Below are positions 643-60,911 of a stretch of DNA of 64,000 nt, piece by piece. This DNA comes from Eledone cirrhosa (taxonomy: Eukaryota), in the NCBI GenBank assembly GCA_964016885.1, contig OZ024750.1, positions 51,584,001 to 51,648,000 on the forward strand, written 5' to 3'. The position numbers and the translations under genes were made by a program. Below the pieces are notes generated by a model. It saw nothing but the letters and a program-made list of their open reading frames with translations. It did not search any database and was not told the DNA's origin. Each line of letters begins with the position of its first letter. Within the stretch, counting starts at the first letter, position 1.

Positions 643-3600
643 GTCCCAACCCTATATTACCCCAGGTATAGTCCCAACCCTATATTACCCCAGGTATAGT
701 CCCAACCCTATATTACTCTAGGTATAGTCCCAAGATTATATTACCCCAGGTATAGTCCCAACCCAATATTACCCCAGGTATAGTCCCAACCCTATATTAG
801 TCCAGGTATAATCCCAACCCTATATTAGTCCAGGTATAATCCCAACCCTATATTACCCCAGGTATAGTCCCAACCCTATATTACCCCAGGTATAGTCCCA
901 ACCCTATATTACGCCAGGTATAATCCCAACCCTATATTACCCCAGGTATAGTCCCAACCCTATATTACCCAGGTATAGTCCCAACCCTATATTACTCCAG
1001 GTATAGTCCCAACCCTATATTACGCCAGGTATAGTCCCAACCCTATATTACTCCAGGTATAGTACCAACCCTATATTACTCCAGGTATAGTCCCAACCCT
1101 ATATTACTCCAGGTATAGTCCCAACCCTATATTACTCCAGGTATAGTCCCAACCCTATATTACTCCAGGTATAGTCCCAACCCTATATTACTCCAGGTAT
1201 AGTCCCAACCCTATATTACCCCAGGTATAGTCCCAACCCTATATTACTCCAGGTATAGTCCCAACCCTATATTACTCCAGGTATAGTCCCAACCCTATAT
1301 TACTCCAGGTATAGTCCCAACCCTATATTACTCCAGGTATAGTCCCAACCCTATATTACTCCAGGTATAGTCCCAACCCTATATTACTCCAGGTATAGTC
1401 CCAACCCTATATTACTCCAGGTATAGTCCCAACCCTATATTACTCCAGGTATAGTCCCAACCCTATATTACTCCAGGTATAGTCCAAACCCTATATTACT
1501 CCAGGTATAGTCCCAACCCTATATTACTCCAGGTATAGTCCCAACCCTATATTACTCCAGGTATAGTCCCAACCTTATATTACCCCAGGTATAGTCCCAA
1601 CCCTATATTACTCCAGGTATAGTCCCAACCCTATATTACCCCAGGTATAGTCTCAACCCTATATTACACCAGGTATAGTCCCAACCCTATATTACCCCAG
1701 GTGTAGTCCCAACCCTATATTACCCTAGGTATAGTCCCAACCCTATATTACTCCAGATATATTCCCAACCCTATATTACACTAGGTATAGTCCCAACCCT
1801 ATATTACACCAGGTATAGTCCCAACCCTATATTACCCCAGGTGTAGTCCCAACCTTATATTACCCTAGGTATAGTCCCAACCCTATATTACTCCAGATAT
1901 ATTCCCAACCCTATATTACCCCAGGTATAGTCCCAACCCTATATTACCCCAGGTATAGTCCCAAGATTATATTACTCCAGGTATAGTCCCAACCCTATAT
2001 TACCCCAGGTATAGTCCCAACCCAATATTACCCCAGGTATAGTCCCAAGATTATATTACTCCAGGTATAGTCACAACCCTATATTACCCCAGGTATATTC
2101 CCAACCCTATATTACCCCATGTATAGTCCAAGCCATATATTACTCCAGGTATAGCTCCAACCCTATATTACTCCAGATATATTCCCAACCCTATATTACC
2201 CTAGGTATAGTCCCAACCCTATATTACCCCAGGTATAGTCCCAACCCTATATTAGTCCAGGTATAGTCCCAACCCTATATTACCCCAGGTATAGTCCCAA
2301 ACCTATATTACTCTAGGTATAGTCCCAACCTTATATTACCCCAGGTATAGTCCCAACCCTATATTACCCCAGGTATAATCCCAACCCTATATTACCCCAG
2401 ATATAATCCCAACCCTATATTACCCCAGATATAGACCCAATCCTATATTACCCCAGATATAGTCCCAAACCTATATTACTCCAGGTATAGTCCTAACCTT
2501 ATAATACCCCATTTATAGTCCCAACCCTATATTACCCCAGATGTAGTCCCAACCCTACATTACCCCAGATAAAATCCAAACCCTATATTACCCCAGATAT
2601 AGTCCCAACCCTATATTACCCCAGGTATAGTCCCAACTCTACATTACCCCAGATATAGTACCAACCCTATATTACCCCAGATATAGCCCCAACCTTATAT
2701 TACCCCAGGTATAGTCCCAACCCTATATTACCCCAGGTATAGTCCCAACCTTATTTACCCCTGTCATAGTCCTAACCCTATATTGCCCCAGATATAGTCC
2801 CAACCCTATATTACTCCAGGTATAGTCCCAAGACTATATTACCCCAGGTATAGTCCCAACCCTATATTACTCCAGGTATAGTCTCAACCTTATATTACTC
2901 CAGGTATAGTCCAAACCCTATATTACCGCAGGTATAGTCCCAACCCTATATTACACCAGGTATAGTCCCAACCCTATATTACCCCAGGTATATTCCCAAC
3001 CTTATATTACCCCAGGTATAGTCCCAACCTTATAATACCCTAGGTATAGTCCCAACCCTATATTACTCCAGGTATAGTCCCAACCCTATATTACTGCAGG
3101 TATAGTCCCAAGCCTATATTACCCCAGGTATAGTCCCAACCCTATATTACCCCAGGTATAGTCCCAACCCTATATTACACTAGGTATAGTCCCAACCCTA
3201 TATTACTCCAGGTATAGTCCCAACCCTATATTACTCCAGGTATAGTCCCAACCCTATATTACACCAGGTATAGTCCCAACCCTATATTACTCCAGGTATA
3301 GTCCCAACCCTATATTACTCCAGGTATAGTCCCAACCCTATATTACCCCAGGTATAGTCCCAACCCTATATTACTCCAGATATAGTCCCAACCCTATATT
3401 ACTCCAGGTATAGTCCCAACCCTATATTACCCCAGGTATAGTCCCAACCCTATATTACTCCAGGTATAGTCCCAACCCTATATTACTCCAGGTATAGTCC
3501 CAACCCTATATTACCCCAGGTATAGTCCCAACCCTATATTACTCCAGATATAGTCCCAACCCTATATTACTCCAGATATAGTCCCAACCCTATATTACAC

Positions 3601-15600: not shown

Positions 15601-18354
15601 CCCCAGGTATAGTCCCAACCCTATATTACCCCAGGTATAATCCCAACCCTATATTACCCCAGGTATAGTCCCAACCCTATATTACCCCAGGTATAGTCCC
15701 AACCCTATATTACTCCAGGTATAGTCCCAACCCTATATTACGCCATGTATAGTCCCAACCCTATATTACTCCAGGTATAGTCCCAACCCTATATTACCCC
15801 AGGTATAGTCCCAACCTTATATTACCCCAGGTATAGTCCCAACCCTATATTACCCCACTTATAGTCCCAACCCTATATTACCCCAGGTATAGTCCCAACC
15901 CTATATTACCCCAGGTATAGTCCCAACCTTATATTACCCCAGGTATAGTCCCAACCCTATATTACCCCAGGTATAGTCCCAACCGTATATTACCCCAGGT
16001 ATAGTCCCAACCTTATATTACCCCAGGTATAGTCCCAACCCTATATTACCCCAGGTATAGTCCCAACCTTATATTACCCCAGGTATAGTCCCAACCCTAT
16101 ATTACCCCAGGTATAGTCCCAACCCTATATTACCCCAGGTATAGTCCCAACCCTATATTACCCCAGGTATAGTCCCAACCCTATATTACCCCAGGTATAG
16201 TCCCAACCTTATATTACCCCAGATATAGTCCCAACTATATATTACCCCAGGTATAGTCCCAACCCTATATTACCCCAGGTATAGTCCCAACCCTATATTA
16301 CCCCAGGTATAGTCTCAACCTTATATTACCCCAGGTATAGTCCCAACCCTATATTACCCCAGGTATAGTCCCAACCCTATATTACCCCAGGTATAATCCC
16401 AACCCTATATTACCCCAGGTATAGTCCCAACCTTATATTACCCCAGGTATAGTACCAACCCTATATTACCCCAGGTATAGTCCCAACCCTATATTACCCC
16501 AGATATAGTCCCAACCTTATATTACTCCAGGTATAGTCCCAACCCTATATTACCCCAGGTATAGTCCCAACCCTATATTACCCCAGGTATAGTCCCAACC
16601 TTATATTACCCCATGTATAGTCCCAACCCTATATTACTCCAGGTATAGTCCCAACCCTATATTACCCCAGGTATAGTCCCAACCTTATATTACCCCAGGT
16701 ATAGTCCCAACCCTATATTACCCCACTTATAGTCCCAACCCTATATTACCCCAGGTATAGTCCCAAACCTATATTACCCCAGGTATAGTCCCAACCTTAT
16801 ATTACCCCAGGTATAGTCCCAACCCTATATTACCCCAGGTATAGTCCCAACCTTATATTACCCCAGGTATAGTCCCAACCTTATATTACCCCAGGTATAG
16901 TCCCAACCCTATATTACCCCAGGTATAGTCCCAACCTTATATTACCCCAGGTATAGTCCCAACCCTATATTACCCCAGGTATAGTCCCAACCCTATATTA
17001 CCCCAGGTATAGTCCCAACCCTATATTACCCCAGGTATAGTCCCAACCCTATATTACCCCAGGTATAGTCCCAACCTTATATTACCCCAGATATAGTCCC
17101 AACTATATATTACCCCAGGTATAGTCCCAACCCTATATTACCCCAGGTATAGTCCCAACCCTATATTACCCCAGGTATAGTCTCAACCTTATATTACCCC
17201 AGGTATAGTCCCAACCCTATATTACCCCAGGTATAGTCCCAACCCTATATTACCCCAGGTATAATCCCAACCCTATATTACCCCAGGTATAGTCCCAACC
17301 TTATATTACCCCAGGTATAGTCCCAACCCTATATTACCCCAGGTATAGTCCCAACCCTATATTACCCCAGATATAGTCCCAACCTTATATTACTCCAGGT
17401 ATAGTCCCAACCCTATATTACCCCAGGTATAGTCCCAACCCTATATTACCCCAGGTATAGTCCCAACCTTATATTACTCCAGGTATAGTCCCAACCCTAT
17501 ATTACTCCAGGTATAGTCCCAACCCTATATTACCCAGGTATAGTCCCAACCCTATATTACCCCAGGTATAGTCCCAACCCTATATTACTCCAGGTATAGT
17601 CCCAACCCTATATTACCCCAGGTATAGTCCCAACCCTATATTACCCCAGGTATAGTCCCAACCCTATATTACCCCAGGTATAATCCCAACCCTATATTAC
17701 CCCAGGTATAGTCCCAACCCTATATTACCCCAGGTATAGTCCCAACCCTATATTACCCCAGGTATAATCCCAACCCTATATTACCCCAGGTATAGTCCCA
17801 ACCCTATATTACCCCAGGTATAGTCCCAACCCTATATTACCCCAGGTATAATCCCAACCCTATATTACCCCAGGTATAGTCCCAACCCTATATTACCCCA
17901 GGTATAGTCCCAACCCTATATTACTCCAGGTATAGTCCCAACCCTATATTACCCCAGGTATAGTCCCAACCCTATATTACCCCAGGTATAGTCCCAACCC
18001 TATATTACCCCAGGTATAATCCCAACCCTATATTACCCCAGGTATAGTCCCAACCCTATATTACCCCAGGTATAGTCCCAACCCTATATTACCCCAGGTA
18101 TAGTCCCAACCCTATATTACCCCAGGTATAGTCCCAACCCTATATTACTCCAGATATAGTCCCAACCCTATATTACCCCAGGTATAGTCCCAACCCTATA
18201 TTACCCCAGGTATAATCCCAACCCTATATTACCCCAGGTATAGTCCAAACCCTATATTACCCCAGGTATAGTCCCAACCCTATATTACCCCAGGTATAGT
18301 CCCAACCCTATATTACCCCAGGTATAGTCCCAACCCTATATTACTCCAGGTATA
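643..18354. repeat. 28-bp satellite array GTCCCAACCCTATATTAC(C/T)CCAGGTATA, about 630 copies, with higher-order structure
   Basis: period 28 (GTCCC at 643 and 671); continuous over 17.7 kb; rare variant monomers recur at fixed offsets. Confidence 0.99.
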
Positions 18355-18361
18355 TATATGT

Positions 18362-19648
18362 GGTGCTGGTGGTGATGGTGGTGGTGGTGGTGGTTGGCTG
18401 TGGTGGAGGTATGGGCAGTGGCGCCGGGGTTGGTGGTGGTGCTGGTTGCTGTTGGTGGTGGTGGTGGTGGTGGTGGTGGTGGTGGTGGTAGTGGTGGTGG
18501 TGATGGTGCTGGTGGTGGTGGTGGTTGGTTGTAGTGGTGGTGGAGGCGGCGGCGGTGGTGGTGGTGGTTGTAGGTAGTGGCCGTGGTGGTGGTGGTGGTA
18601 GTGGTGGCGATTGTTCAGCGGCGGCCGACGAGGGAATAATGCTTATGGTAGTGGGGGTGTTAGTAGTGGTATTGGTACTGGCGGAGCTGGTGCTAGTAGA
18701 CATACTGTTGATGATGGTACTGGTGCTAGTAGTGGTGGCGGTGGAGGCTGTGGTACTGGTTGTAGTAGTAGTTGTGGTGCTTGTGGCGGTACTGTTGCTA
18801 GTGGTGGTTGCGGTACTGTTGCTAGTAGTGTTGGTGGTGGTGTTGATGGTGGTGTTGGTGGTGGTGGTGGTGGCGACGGTGGTTCTGGTGCTAGTAGTGG
18901 TGGTGGTGGTGGCGGTGGTACTGGTGCTAGTAGTAGAGGTGGTGCTGGTGGCGGTACTGTTGCTAGTTGTGTTGGTGGTGGTGTTGATGGTGGTGTTGGT
19001 GGTGGTGGCGACGGTGGTTCTGGTGCTAGGAGTAGTGGTGGTGGTGGTGGCGGTGGTACTGGTGCTAGTAGGGGTGGTGGCGGCGGCGGTGGTACTGGTG
19101 CTAGTAGTAGAGGTGGTGCTGGTGGCGGTACTGTTGCTAGTTGTGTTGGTGGTGGTGTTGATGGTGGTGTTGGTGTTGGTGGTGGTGTTGATAGTGGTGT
19201 TGGTGGTGGCGACGGTGGTAGTGGTGCTAGTAGTAGAGGTGGTGCCGGTGGTGGTGGTGGTGGCGACGGTGGTACTGGTGCTAGTAGTACGTGTGGTGCT
19301 GGAGGTGGTGGTGGCGGCGTTGGTACTGGTGCTAGTAGTAGAGGTGGTGTTGGTGGTGGTGTTGGTGGGGGTGTTGATGGTGTTTCTGGCGACGGTGGTA
19401 CTGGTACTAGTATTACTGGTGGTGGTAGTGGTGGTGGTGATGGTGGTAGTGGTGCTAGTATTTGGGCGGTGCTGTTGTTAGTGTTGGTGGTGGTGGTGTT
19501 GTTGGTGGTGTTGATGGTGGTAGTGGTGGTGGTGCTGGTCGCGTTACTGTTGTTGTTGTTGGTGGTGGTGGTGGTGGTGGTGATGACGGTACTGGTGCTA
19601 GTAATAGTGAGGTGGTAGTGTTGGTGGTGGTGGTGTTGGTGTTATTGG
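18362..19648. repeat. GGT/AGT/GTT-rich cryptic trinucleotide block with internal duplications, flanked by TATGT direct repeats
   Basis: TATGT at 18357-18361 and 19649-19653; recurring GGTACTGGTGCTAGTAGTAGAGG modules. Confidence 0.9.
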
Positions 19649-19989
19649 TATGTATCCTGTAAATATACATTCCCAGACTATTTCAATTTCCCACAGCCGC
19701 CTCTATCAGGTTTATACCACTTAACCTGCCCATTATATCTCTTTATATAAAAGCTTCGTGATTTATTTACTGACATCTGTGACCTAAATAGATCTAAGTG
19801 GGGGTAAATATGATGAATATTTTGTCTTACAGAATGAAAAGCCGACCTTTTGTTTAACAAGCCTTAAATTGTGTCCTTGTGAAAGTCATTCAATTCTCAT
19901 TAGTTCGCCATACTTCATTGATGAGAAATCTCAGAAATTTAAAGGAGTTACTTAATCTGAACAATATAACAATGAAACAGTTTAGGGGG

Positions 19990-20590
19990 AGTGTAGTTAC
20001 ACAGTTGTGACAGAGGGCATTGTTGTTACACAGTTGTGACACAGGCAGTGTTATTTCACAGTTGTGACACATGGCAGTTACACAGTTGAGACACCGGGCA
20101 GTGTTGTGACACAGTTGTGACACATGGCAGTGTTGTGACACAGTTGTGACGCAGAGCAGTGGTGTTACACAGCTGAGGCACACGACAGTGTTGTGACACA
20201 GTTGTGACAGGACATTGTTGTGACACAGTTGTGACACGAGGCAGTGTTGTTTCACAGTTGTGACACAGGGCAGTGGTGTTTCACAGTTGTGACACAGGGC
20301 AGTGTTGTTACACAATTGTGAGACAGGGCAGTGTTGTTACACAGTCGTGAGACAGGGCAGTGTTGTGACACAGGGCAGTGTTGTTACACAGTTGTGAGAC
20401 AAGGCAGTGTTGTTACACAGGGCAGTGTTGTTACATAGTTGTAACACAGGGCGGTGTTGTTACACAGTTGTGACACAGGGCAGTGTTGTGACACAATTGT
20501 GATACAGTTGTGACACAGGGCAGTGTTGTGACACAGGGCGGTGTTGTTACTGAGGACAGTGTAGTTTGAACGATGGCAGTGTTGTTACAA
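19990..20590. repeat. about 29-bp minisatellite (CAGTGTTGTGACACAGTTGTGACACAGGG)
   Basis: degenerate tandem units bounded by AGTGTAGTT at 19990-19998 and 20558-20566. Confidence 0.92.
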
Positions 20591-24659: not shown

Positions 24660-26040
24660 GACACACCCCAGCATGAACTCAGCCGATATGTAGATGACAT
24701 ACTCATCCTTACATCATCCGTGAAGAAGCGGATAAAATATACATGACATTCTCCAGCATGGACGCCAATATAAAGTTCAGCATGGAACACTCCGATGACC
24801 GTGGATACCTATTGGACTTCCAACTCAGGGTAACAGAAGAAGGCGACTTCCACACCTCCTTCTATAAAAAAAGCCGCCAGCAGGGACCTGTTCGTAAATT
24901 TCAGATCAACCCTCCCAGTCACCGCTAAGTTTGGATACATAAGGAATCAACAAACACGTATCCGGAACAAATGCACCGACGCAAGAGACCGAGACACACA
25001 CACCACACATTTCCTGGAAGTACTTAAACTGAACGGATACTCGACGTCCACCGCGAACCGTGCCAGATACACCACACCCAAGGCACTAACACCTGCTTCC
25101 TGAAGCTCCCACACTTCAGTGACGAAACAACAACGGCCATCCGCAGAGCTATCAGACGAGAGGGACTAGATATCCAGCTAGCCCACTCAGGACCTTCTCT
25201 ACGCGGACAGCTAACCAAAAGACACTCCAGCAGACATGACAGCCGCTGCAGGCTAGCCAACTGCCCCATCAACGACAAAACCCTATGCCACCAGGCTTAC
25301 GTCGTACATAGATTAGAGTGCGACAAATGCAGCAATTTCTACATAGGTAGCACCACCAGACCACTTCACATTAGAATAAAAGAACACCTCAACACTAACG
25401 CTTCCTCATTTAAGAAACACCTAGTGAAATGCAAAAACACCGACAAAAACATAATAGTTAGGATAGAAACTAAGGAAAGAAACCTCCGCAATCTTAGAAT
25501 TAAAGAAGCACTAATTATAGACAAAACGCAACCGCCAATCAATAACAGACTAGAACTCAACACCCAATTGTTAACATGATAGAGCACCTAGCCTCACACT
25601 TACACCCCCACGTACCCTCTCTCACACACACACACACACGCACGCTTACACCTTCACTTATTCTCTCTCGCACACACACATAGACCAGTTTTAACATGAT
25701 GGAGCATCTAGCCCCACATTTACATATAAACATATCCTCTCACACTCTCACACACACACACGCACACACACACGCATGCCTTCACGTATTCTCACGCCTT
25801 CTCACACCTTGTCACACCTTCACGTATTCTCCCACACACACACACTTAGACATACATGTCCAAACCCTTTATCCACCTAAGCTTCACTCTTTGACATTAG
25901 AAATAGAATGGTATTTCTATACTATTTCCTGTCAGCATGACTTGGCAAGCTATTTAGAACACTGGATTAACCCCTTTACTTCCCTCCGAAGAAGAGATAT
26001 TATCTCGAAAATTAAGGATATTCAAATAAATTTAAGGTAA
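24660..26040 (+). mobile_element. Penelope-like element, 5'-truncated (RT C-terminus plus GIY-YIG to about 25580, then tail)
   Basis: RYVDDIL, IKFSMEH, LDFQL, FYKK, LKLNGY, LECDKCSNFYIGSTTRPLHIRIKEH, IKEALII..QPPINNR across frameshifts. Confidence 0.92.
25983..26017 (+). ncRNA. variant hammerhead-like motif (CCGAAGA core) in Penelope tail
   Basis: cct-CCGAAGA-a-gagat-att-atctc-GAAA-at-TA-agg. Confidence 0.5.
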
Positions 26041-35667: not shown

Positions 35668-35925
35668 TGTGTGAATGTATGTGTATGTTTAAACGTGTGT
35701 GAATGTATGTGAATGTTTAAACGTGTGTGAATGTATGTGAATGTTTAAACGTGTGTGAATGTATGTGTATGTTCAAACGTGTGTGAATGTATGTGTATGT
35801 TTAAACGTGTGTGAATGTATGTGAATGTTTAAACGTGTGTGAATGTATGTGTATGTTTAAACGTGTGTGAATGTATGTATATGTTTAAACGTGTGTGAAT
35901 GTATGTGTATGTTTAAACAGGTGTG
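35668..35925. repeat. 26-bp minisatellite (GTGTGTGAATGTATGTGTATGTTTAAAC-like, unit length approximate)
   Basis: roughly 9-10 tandem units. Confidence 0.9.
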
Positions 35926-41054: not shown

Positions 41055-41943
<889 letters not shown>

Positions 41944-42467: not shown

Positions 42468-42733
42468 ATAGAGAGATAGATAGAGAGATAGAGAGATAGA
42501 TTTCTTTATTTGCCACAAGGGCGCACAAGAAAAGGGGACAATATAAAGACATGCCGGGGATTTTACATACAGTCGTGTAAAAAATATAAAACAAACAATT
42601 ATAATAATCGAAATCCCCAATAGGGGGGAAGCGCCACAAATGGGTTGTTTAATACCCCGTCGATAGAACAACCCTCAACTTCAGGAGCGTGTTGTGCAAG
42701 TGCTGCTTTCTTCCTTTTGCTCTCTCCTTTAAC

Positions 42734-58110: not shown

Positions 58111-59058
58111 ACACTCCCTTGTCACAATGTACCCCATCTCTATAACTCACTCAGTCGAGTCCCACTCCGTTGTCACAATGTACCCATCTCTATAACTCAC
58201 TCAGTGGAGTCCCACTCCCTTGTCACAATGTACCCCATCTCTATAACTCACTCAGTCGAGTCCCACTCCGTTGTCACAATGTACCAAATCTCTATAACTC
58301 ACTCAGTCGAGTCCCACTCCGTTGTCACAATGTACCCCATCTCTATAACTCACTCAGTCGAGTCCCACTCCGTTGTCACAATGTACCCCATCTCTATAAC
58401 TCACTCAGTCGAGTCCCACTCCGTTGTCACAATGTACCCCATCTCTATAACTCACTCAGTCGAGTCCCACTCCGTTGTCACAATTTACCCCATCTCTATA
58501 ACTCACTCAGTCGAGTCCCACTCCGTTGTCACAATTTACCCCATCTCTATAACTCACTCAGTCGAGTCCCACTCCGTTGTCACAATTTACCCCATCTCTA
58601 TAACTCACTCAGTCGAGTCCCACTCCGTTGTCACAATGTACCCCATCTCTATAACTCACTCAGTGGAGTCCCACTCCGTTGTCACAATGTACCCCATCTC
58701 TATAACTCACTCAGTCGAGTCCCACTCCGTTGTCACAATGTACCCCATCTCTATAACTCACTCAGTCGAGTCCCACTCCGTTGTCACAATGTACCCCATC
58801 TCTATAACTCACTCAGTCGAGTCCCACTCCGTTGTCACAATGTACCCCATCTCTATAACTCACTCAGTCGAGTCCCACTCCGTTGTCACAATGTACCCCA
58901 TCTCTATAACTCACTCAGTCGAGTCCCACTCCGTTGTCACAATGTACCCCATCTCTATAACTCACTCAGTCGAGTCCCACTCCGTTGTCACAATGTACCC
59001 TATCTCTATAACTCACACAGTCGAGTCCCACTCCGTTGTCACAATGTACCACATCTCA
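58111..59058. repeat. 51-bp minisatellite, about 18 highly homogeneous copies
   Basis: TTGTCACAATGTACCCCATCTCTATAACTCACTCAGTCGAGTCCCACTCCG. Confidence 0.98.
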
Positions 59059-59500: not shown

Positions 59501-60718
59501 AAAACATGATATGAGCAAAAATATATGGAAAATTTAGCAAATAAAACAATCTTTTATTTCGACAAAGCACGGCATTTAATCGATTTCCCAATATTTTTTG
59601 ACATAGGTATAGATTCACGACCGTTTTACAGGAAAGGGTTATAACTGATCATATCGATCACATTATTTTGCAGATAATTTGTTTCATCGACCTCGGAAAG
59701 ATGAAAGACAAAGTTAGACAGAGTGCTGTTTGAACTCAAATTTTAAAAGAAAATACAAACATGGCTGTCTAGTTAGAACTATTTATTTCACAAATCAAGT
59801 GATACACGGTTGCATTCTTCTACATACCGCCTTTTGCATGGCTTCCATTGTACTCATGAGTTTATCAATACTTTGTAGTCGACGGAAACTGCGGGGAATA
59901 TCGTTGTCTATATATATATATGCATACATATATATATATATGGGAAAGAGAAAGTGTGTACGTTTGTGTGTGTGTGCGCGCGTGTGTGTTTCATCATTTC
60001 CTATTCAGTCATCTTCAAGACTTCGACGGGAGTTTTAACTCAGGGTACAGAAAGTCAAAACGAGCCCCCACAGAGCATTGCACCCGATGCTCTAACGATT
60101 CTCTTAATTCGCCATCTTTCCCTGATAATTATCTAACAAACAAATCTATCTTGATAATTAAATTGGTCTTCAATGAAGGGTGAATTAAGTTCCGTTCTCC
60201 CAGAGGAGCCACTAGGCATCACGATAATAGTATTAATCTAACTTTTAATTCATTCTTGGTAACAGACGATATTTCCTTCTAACATCTCACACTGCAAACT
60301 TCTACGACTTGCTCAACTTCCCCACTTAATGTTTGACGAAAGAGAATCGACATCCATCGGTTTCGAATAGGGAATGGAACAGACTTGTCGTGAAATTAAC
60401 GTGAAAGTGGCTGAGTATTCCAAAGCCTCTTGAATATTTAACATAATTCTCATAGTGCTGCAACCTGTGACTGCGCCTGCAAAGGTTGTCCCCTTGAATT
60501 ACTGGTACAGTCTATCCAACGTTACTTCCAGTTCCTGTCTATCCAAATACTCTCACACTCCTTAGATTGACCAGAGTAAACTTATACGATTGACATAATG
60601 GAACAAGTCTCCATCGTTTTCGACGATGAGTGTTCCAGTTGTTCGATCAATGGAATAGCACGTTCGTCAAGTTTACTGAGCAAGTGGCCGAGCATTCTAC
60701 AGAGTCGTGTTATAATCT

Positions 60719-60911
60719 ATCAATACAGTTATAAGCCATCAATACAGTTATAAACCATCAATACAGTTATAAACCATCAATACAGTTATAAGCCATCAAT
60801 ACAGTTATAAGCCATCAATACAGTTATAAACAGTCAATACAGTTATAAACCATCAATACAGTTATAAGACATCAATACAGTTATAAGCCATCAATACAGT
60901 TATAAGCCATC
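60719..60911. repeat. 19-bp minisatellite (ATCAATACAGTTATAAGCC), about 10 copies
   Basis: direct. Confidence 0.95.

Follow-up and report, generated by a model that had tools for sequence, protein, structure and literature searches.

The locus examined here raises the question of how more than six hundred tandem repeats came to lie at one place in a genome, and from what sequence their unit was taken. The repeats are found in a stretch of 64,000 nt from Eledone cirrhosa (assembly GCA_964016885.1, contig OZ024750.1, positions 51,584,001 to 51,648,000), which is called the window and whose own numbering is used below. A sequence-only reading of this DNA had proposed that a 28-bp snippet of an RNA-virus L gene was amplified there about 630-fold. 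The present analysis keeps the amplification and replaces the seed. The array is very probably a single-locus satellite. Its unit is in register with a Helitron-type element, a copy of which has decayed at this site, and the array would have grown there, long after the element had been inserted, by a short duplication and then by slippage and unequal exchange.

The array consists of head-to-tail units of 28 bp. Tandem Repeats Finder (TRF) reports a period of 28, 633.0 copies and 93% matches at positions 642-18354. A unit-by-unit parse of positions 642-18353 also yields 633 units, with 94 distinct sequences among them; 621 have a length of 28 bp and the other 12 have 27 bp. Both methods bear out the proposed copy number. 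Over the 633 units the mean divergence from the first unit is 1.17 mismatches, or approximately 4%. When up to three mismatches are allowed, the monomer has 599 matches in the window vs none in 100 shuffles. The longest exact repeat inside the array is 760 bp, and the string of unit variants displays short higher-order patterns nested within duplicated blocks. With 17.7 kb, 633 units, a head-to-tail order and homogenized monomers (4% mean divergence), the array is a satellite; its unit and size also place it among the minisatellites, as a very large one. Folding of one to three monomers as DNA gives no stable structure (-0.8 to -4.4 kcal/mol). The minus strand of the array has G runs at regular spacing and 148 loose quadruplex-type matches, which is a raw count without a control.

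The array is found in one place only. All 170 matches of an exact 31-mer from the array in the 3.0-Gb assembly fall inside the window, as do all 462 assembly-wide matches of a degenerate 18-mer junction motif. The array is therefore single-locus in this assembly, which settles the point, raised in the sequence-only reading, of whether the monomer is present at one locus or many. The contig has a length of 55.3 Mb, and one of its ends is 3.7 Mb away.

The sequence to the left of the array had been described as unique, and this is not borne out. Positions 566-669 have 36 further matches in the genome, on many contigs and with 74-85% identity, most of which continue into the first monomer. With a typical family copy as query there are 2,504 first-look candidates, and 40 of the 40 that were scored match at 80-100%. 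A first profile of the family was made from 33 of the 36 fetched copies, which had been picked by likeness to the window. Because of that choice a second, independent profile was built from 37 copies picked for their similarity to a copy other than that of the window. This profile matches positions 545-658 at E 1e-16; a second match, to positions 169-282 (E 8.8e-4), is weak and has a high composition bias.

A comparison of the window with the family columns shows that the alignment runs into the array. At positions 598-641, 37 of 44 bases are the commonest base of the family column, with no gap. In the register that follows from this, 18 of the 28 monomer bases are also the family's commonest base; the best other register gives 14 and the mean is 7.5. 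Agreement is strong over monomer bases 1-17 (13/17) and weak over the remaining 11 (5/11). The first monomer is continuous with the upstream DNA, as had been noticed, and the frame ..NQKDLSPNPILPQV is present there. At the other end of the element copy the window reads A|TCAAC at 174/175, as do 15 of the 21 scorable copies. Between these two segments lies a 15-bp minisatellite, which this element copy seems to have seeded from its 5' part.

The family is dispersed and non-coding. Its copies are a median 77% alike with many indels, the 11 copies with both ends are approximately 0.46-0.68 kb long, and the longest stop-free stretches in 33 copies are 42-105 codons. Features described for Helitrons in PMC2267711 are a 5' TC after a host A, a palindrome of 16-20 bp located 10-15 bp before the 3' end, and a terminal CTAG or CTRR followed by a host T. 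The 5' end was located in 21 of 70 copies. It is TC in 15 of the 21 and is preceded by A in 19; bases further out vary. The 3' end was located in 35 of 70 copies with a palindromic search motif in which up to 5 mismatches were allowed. An 18-bp palindrome is present, and 22 of the 35 copies have at least 6 of 7 stem pairs, a count that leans upward because the motif itself is palindromic. The palindrome ends 13 bp before the 3' terminus and is followed by nine bases and then by C, T, A and G. The commonest letters at the terminus among the 35 copies are C (23), T (24), A (24) and G (19), then T (26), and conservation falls beyond. Helitrons are not known to make a target-site duplication on insertion. 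None of the 11 two-ended copies has a duplication of at least 4 bp, with a few of these ends off by some bases. By these end features of its own, the seed family has the sequence characteristics of a non-autonomous Helitron. The hairpin and CTRR end of the window's own copy were not found in the window or in the 20 kb downstream, so that this copy is, on its sequence, a 3'-truncated relic.

The genome is rich in genes of the Helitron Rep type, with 3,704 candidates, of which 150 were scored. Near-identical Rep-like matches occur on one strand every 80-210 kb at G000:C20:3.54-5.19 Mb (14 listed), and similarly at C27:13.67-15.46 Mb. These two series suggest that tandem units of very large size are present, each with a Helitron inside.

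Approximately 150 bp inside the element there is a segment similar to the heads of short interspersed elements (SINEs) of the tRNA type. The head profile matches a SINE-like head in another family locus, L025, at E 5.5e-7, and three further matches elsewhere have E values of 0.04-0.24. ARAGORN finds no tRNA in 21 loci, and there is no tRNA family among 38 Rfam matches, the head-like segment not being an Rfam member. The monomer starts in what appears, by the box B consensus, to be the box-B-like part of this segment. A plain tRNA-derived SINE would have its tRNA-like head, with A and B boxes, at the 5' end of the element. It was rejected as the parent on two grounds, the internal position of the head-like part and the Helitron type of the ends.

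The right side of the array is less simple. The last unit, with its tail of eight degenerate bases, ends CCAGGTATATATATGT at 18361. Next come a 1.29-kb GGT-rich block and then ATCCTGTAAATA; ATCCTGTAAA starts at 19654. TATGT is present on both sides of the block, at 18357-18361 and 19649-19653, as a 5-bp direct repeat. Positions 19645-19990 are unique in the genome. A short segment at 19651-19665 is similar to the family. With the independent profile, 13 of 3000 natural 30-mers score as high (p ~0.004, post hoc), and with the first profile 7 of 4000. Family similarity is absent at 19666-19760 (142/300), as are the remaining ~350 bp of the element and its 3' end. With no family match beyond 19665 and no 3' terminus, the 3' part of the element has apparently been lost. 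That the last monomer would run into the right flank once the GGT block is removed, as the sequence-only reading had it, is plausible. It is thinly supported, because the family-like match of ~15 bp was tested post hoc, an unanchored test is weaker and nhmmer is negative. The wider claim, that the monomer was born in place as an internal piece of its flanking sequence, stands on the in-register family match, the single locus and these ~15 bp. The GGT block has only matches of a low-complexity type elsewhere in the genome. A low-complexity repeat cluster at G000:C2:407.6-408.0 Mb is loosely similar to part of it (77-79% over ~73 bp).

From the array anatomy, single locus, homology, family ends and block duplications, all of which are observed, we infer four steps of growth. 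An old non-autonomous Helitron copy with a captured tRNA-SINE-head-like piece would have been inserted at 174/175 and then decayed. A 28-bp internal stretch would next have been duplicated, perhaps at a short AGT repeat that bounds it. Monomers would then have spread by slippage or gene conversion, and blocks of kilobase size would have been duplicated by unequal crossing-over to reach 633 units. Lastly, the GGT block may have arisen or been inserted at the 3' edge, with loss of the element's 3' part.

Block comparisons record the later part of this history. Blocks offset by 6,212 bp differ at 4 of 1801 positions, those offset by 6,184 bp at 29 of 1201 and those offset by 5,680 bp at 14 of 2301. 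The shorter offsets of 3,162 and 3,021 bp give 28 mismatches in 1101 and 1 in 560. These five of the six compared blocks differ by 0.2-2.5%. Judged by divergence, the family is old (77% alike) and the array is young (4% from the first unit, 0.2-2.5% between blocks). The nested kilobase duplications point to an expansion that was local and young, with slippage and later unequal exchange as the likely means. Most of the differences from the family are common to nearly all monomers, and for this reason the seed had already decayed when it was amplified. The array is most likely neutral.

Local birth of repeats is common in this genome. Six of 70 family copies have an internal tandem repeat of their own, different from the one described here, with a period of 22-32, and these are considered together with the 15-bp minisatellite at 248-565 and several minisatellites nearby. 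The six copies are L040, L034, L071, L025, L044 and L069, and L040 has at least 7 copies of its unit.

Several observations weigh against growth in place from a Helitron-type copy. The sixth block comparison gives 413 mismatches in 1401, probably because it is out of register. No orthologous allele with a single monomer was seen. The strict CTRR terminus is found in only 15 of 35 decayed copies, and ends were located in a minority of the 70. Right-hand continuity rests on ~15 bp and on a test designed after the match was seen; nhmmer finds no family match in the right flank, and in the unanchored form of the test a score as high is reached by 35 of 500 shuffles and, among natural 76-mers, by 30 of 700. 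The last 11 bases of the monomer, when scored alone, are at chance level (1837/3000), so that these bases may be foreign DNA joined at a breakpoint.

The last of these points leads to an alternative in which the unit is a chimera, with 17 bp of the element and 11 bp of unrelated DNA brought together at the breakpoint of a deletion or insertion. The array would still be local, but the likeness in the right flank would be due to chance and the two flanks would not be continuous. The absence of any family match beyond 19665 agrees with this, as does the unanchored test (p 0.04-0.07). Against it are the anchored tests given above (13/3000 and 7/4000) and the agreement of 5 of these 11 bases with the most frequent base of the family column, in one register and without a gap. 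A chimeric unit is unlikely.

A weaker rival is that the array was made by rolling-circle replication of the Helitron or from a circular intermediate, and came into the chromosome as one piece with the 5' part of the element, with no later expansion there. A copy with a 5' end and no 3' terminator is what an aberrant rolling-circle event is predicted to leave according to PMC12628747, and Helitrons often carry internal arrays (PMC12628747, PMC12001565). The missing 3' terminator fits; the timing and the single locus do not. The 28-mer is in tandem in none of the 70 other copies and nowhere else in the assembly. The differences shared by nearly all monomers, together with an expansion far younger than the family, also count against this origin, and nested blocks of differing divergence imply several rounds. 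Growth of the array by rolling-circle replication is quite improbable.

It was also considered whether much of the array length is an artefact of assembly, from two haplotypes or repeated reads strung together. The blocks 6,212, 5,680 and 3,021 bp apart differ by amounts in the allelic range, which speaks for such an error; against it, the longest exact repeat is 760 bp. Two sequencing runs of one sample, X1 and X2, carry the left junction in one contig. The summed depth over the monomer is ~6,100 (X1) and ~6,750 (X2) vs 6.5 and 10.6 on the flank contig. Summed depth is not a copy number, and the sample may be the source of the assembly; the depths fit hundreds of monomer copies as an order of magnitude only. 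An assembly error on that scale is very unlikely. None of the sequencing runs listed with this sequence is an RNA run. Two other runs, X4 and X5, which have other organism labels, each hold one short low-depth contig of array sequence without flank, and these are not taken as orthologs.

A different reading concerns the transcript and not the growth of the array. The window copy differs from the family so as to form a splice-donor-like CAG|GTATAG in the monomer (665/666). An acceptor-like site precedes it by 70 bp, at 594-595, and both are recognized by sequence. The transposon fragment might then be an exon of an unannotated transcript, and the array an amplified exon-intron junction with several hundred tandem 5' splice sites beside a box-B-like half motif. 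If true, the array could act as a splicing-factor sink or a source of small RNA. No host gene was found near the array by Pfam among 219 open reading frames (ORFs) of the window and 60 kb of neighbouring sequence, and there is very little chance that the exon reading is correct.

Derivation of the monomer from an endogenized RNA-virus L gene, as first proposed, is almost certainly wrong, and for the left flank and the monomer a viral origin is already refuted. Two observations speak for it: a stop-free frame of 43 codons crosses the left junction, and the genome does hold L fragments similar to those of Mononegavirales, on contigs C3, C23 and C27. The flank, however, belongs to a non-coding family of high copy number, which is full of indels and ends like a Helitron. 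The frame that had been joined across the array reads I-L-stop in the right flank, two codons past the join. In the flanks, of which the unique stretch at 19666-19985 is unassigned, no viral sequence was recognized, which had been named in advance as a result that would speak against the proposal, and a snippet of an L gene as seed is not supported.

Protein searches agree with this. Ten flank peptides have no Pfam match at E ≤10. No RNA-virus polymerase family is found in any of the 219 ORFs (complex in sequence, at least 72 amino acids (aa), from ~124 kb of DNA); the six that match Pfam all match retroelement domains (reverse transcriptase, zf-RVT, endonuclease, GIY-YIG). A phmmer search with the 43-aa left frame against 1.84 billion proteins gives 8 matches, the best at E 1.3e-16, and none is annotated as a viral polymerase. 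These were judged spurious, as each score adds up 5-10 weak stretches along a protein that is itself repetitive, with domains such as PKD or GAF; in one of the 8 no stretch passes alone. In tblastn, 25 flank peptides against four L-like loci of the same genome have a best E of 0.064, and the flank DNA against the L-like loci a best E of 0.046. With no significant polymerase similarity in the Pfam, phmmer, tblastn and 219-ORF searches, an endogenous viral element of the L gene was rejected.

Genome-wide scans for viral families were coarse. A first look with PF00946 gives 7 Mononegavirales-like L matches on C3, C23 and C27 and none on C10; PF04196 gives no match, and no control gave a signal either. 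The genome's real non-retroviral viral insertion, which is unrelated to the array, is a Mononegavirales-like L remnant at G000:C3:130160114-130163282 (L092). It covers profile positions 1-1057 of 1068 in two pieces (E 5e-146 and 9e-43) with one internal stop each, and smaller pieces are present on C3, C23 and C27. No virus-seeded satellite turned up in the literature sampled, which is too limited a part of it for claiming absence.

Features of the array locus, left to right in window coordinates
Feature	Position	Strand	Basis and remarks
Probable 5' end of non-autonomous Helitron-type copy, decayed	175..282	+	A at 174, then TC; profile match 169-282, E 8.8e-4; weak alone
15-bp minisatellite, ~22 copies	248..565	+	TRF period 15, 21.9 copies; unit pieces align to 5' part of family, below significance alone
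Element core with tRNA-SINE-head-like segment, running into first monomer	566..658	+	36 genomic matches, 74-85%; profile E 1e-16
Satellite array	642..18353	+	633 units; short higher-order patterns; nested 0.9-6.2-kb block duplications; single locus
First (seed-position) monomer	642..669	+	Colinear with 28 consecutive family columns
Degenerate tail of last unit, 8 bases, ending TATGT	18354..18361	+	Sequence
GGT-rich low-complexity block, 1.29 kb, internal 174-bp repeat	18362..19648	+	TRF periods 3 and 174; composition
Short family-like remnant	19651..19665	+	Matches columns under and just after 3' half of monomer; 15.1 bits

Because the array is confined to a single place and takes its start within a common Helitron-type element, of which this copy has decayed, ordinary, well-resolved growth of a satellite from a transposon fragment is likely, and several published systems can be set beside it. 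PMC12628747 and PMC12001565 describe tandem repeats associated with Helitrons or Helentrons, i.e., DINE-TR1, the 'intermediate' arrays of oyster Cg170/HindIII and the Xenopus Heli2Xen minisatellites. As in these, an internal segment of a non-autonomous rolling-circle element is in tandem, and the element is clear on one side, which resembles the 'intermediate' form. Those arrays travel with the element to many loci, whereas 1 of the 71 copies examined here carries this array; the unit here is 28 bp and expansion seems to be later than transposition.

Squamate SINE-derived satellites (sSat) provide a second comparison (PMC10702118). One Sceloporus occidentalis locus has more than 1,200 monomers. 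Points in common are a longer terminal unit that matches the parent element to its end, alternating subvariants, and units that can include box B plus extra bases of unknown origin. The sSat units described there are 67-215 nt, come from free SINEs and often occupy many loci. The present unit has only 28 nt, and the SINE-like head is embedded in an element of the Helitron type, ~150 bp from its end.

Arrays in long terminal repeat (LTR) retrotransposons of Lathyrus sativus (PMC7004042) are similar in the occasional large expansion within single copies of a dispersed element. In that plant the element family already contains a short array, and the expansions are concentrated at primary constrictions; in the present case the array is the only one, and the equivalent of the monomer occurs once in other copies. 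The CapA satellite of New World monkeys was also traced to a single-copy ancestral sequence, but it is abundant and has a ~1,500-bp monomer that comes from an intron and is not a transposon fragment (10.1101/213868). The present array resembles known transposon-derived satellites in the way it works and differs from them in its short unit and in its confinement to one copy.

The significance of the locus is modest. There are good descriptions already of satellites that come from Helitrons, from SINEs and from LTR elements; with the claim of a virus-seeded satellite removed, a tidy example of satellite birth remains. It could serve to measure expansion and homogenization, given alleles or sister species, because many dispersed copies reveal the parent sequence, a single locus contains the whole array and the order of variants records successive duplications.

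Other repeats are present in the window. A frame-broken element similar to long interspersed elements lies on the minus strand at 42653-47755. It retains pieces of an endonuclease and of a reverse transcriptase, and its upstream ORF of 365 aa has a zinc-knuckle-like motif. A Penelope-like fragment with a GIY-YIG domain (E 2e-5) is located at 24698-25579. Mariner-like transposase fragments were recognized by eye at 41162-41911 and have no Pfam match at E 1e-4. Minisatellites of 9-19 copies each are found at 19986-20507 (29 bp), 35668-35925 (28 bp), 58112-59057 (51 bp) and 60709-60911 (19 bp), and a 29-bp minisatellite within the same range of copies is present in locus L046 (1891-2155). A (TA)n tract of 2.3 kb occupies positions 48597-50860.

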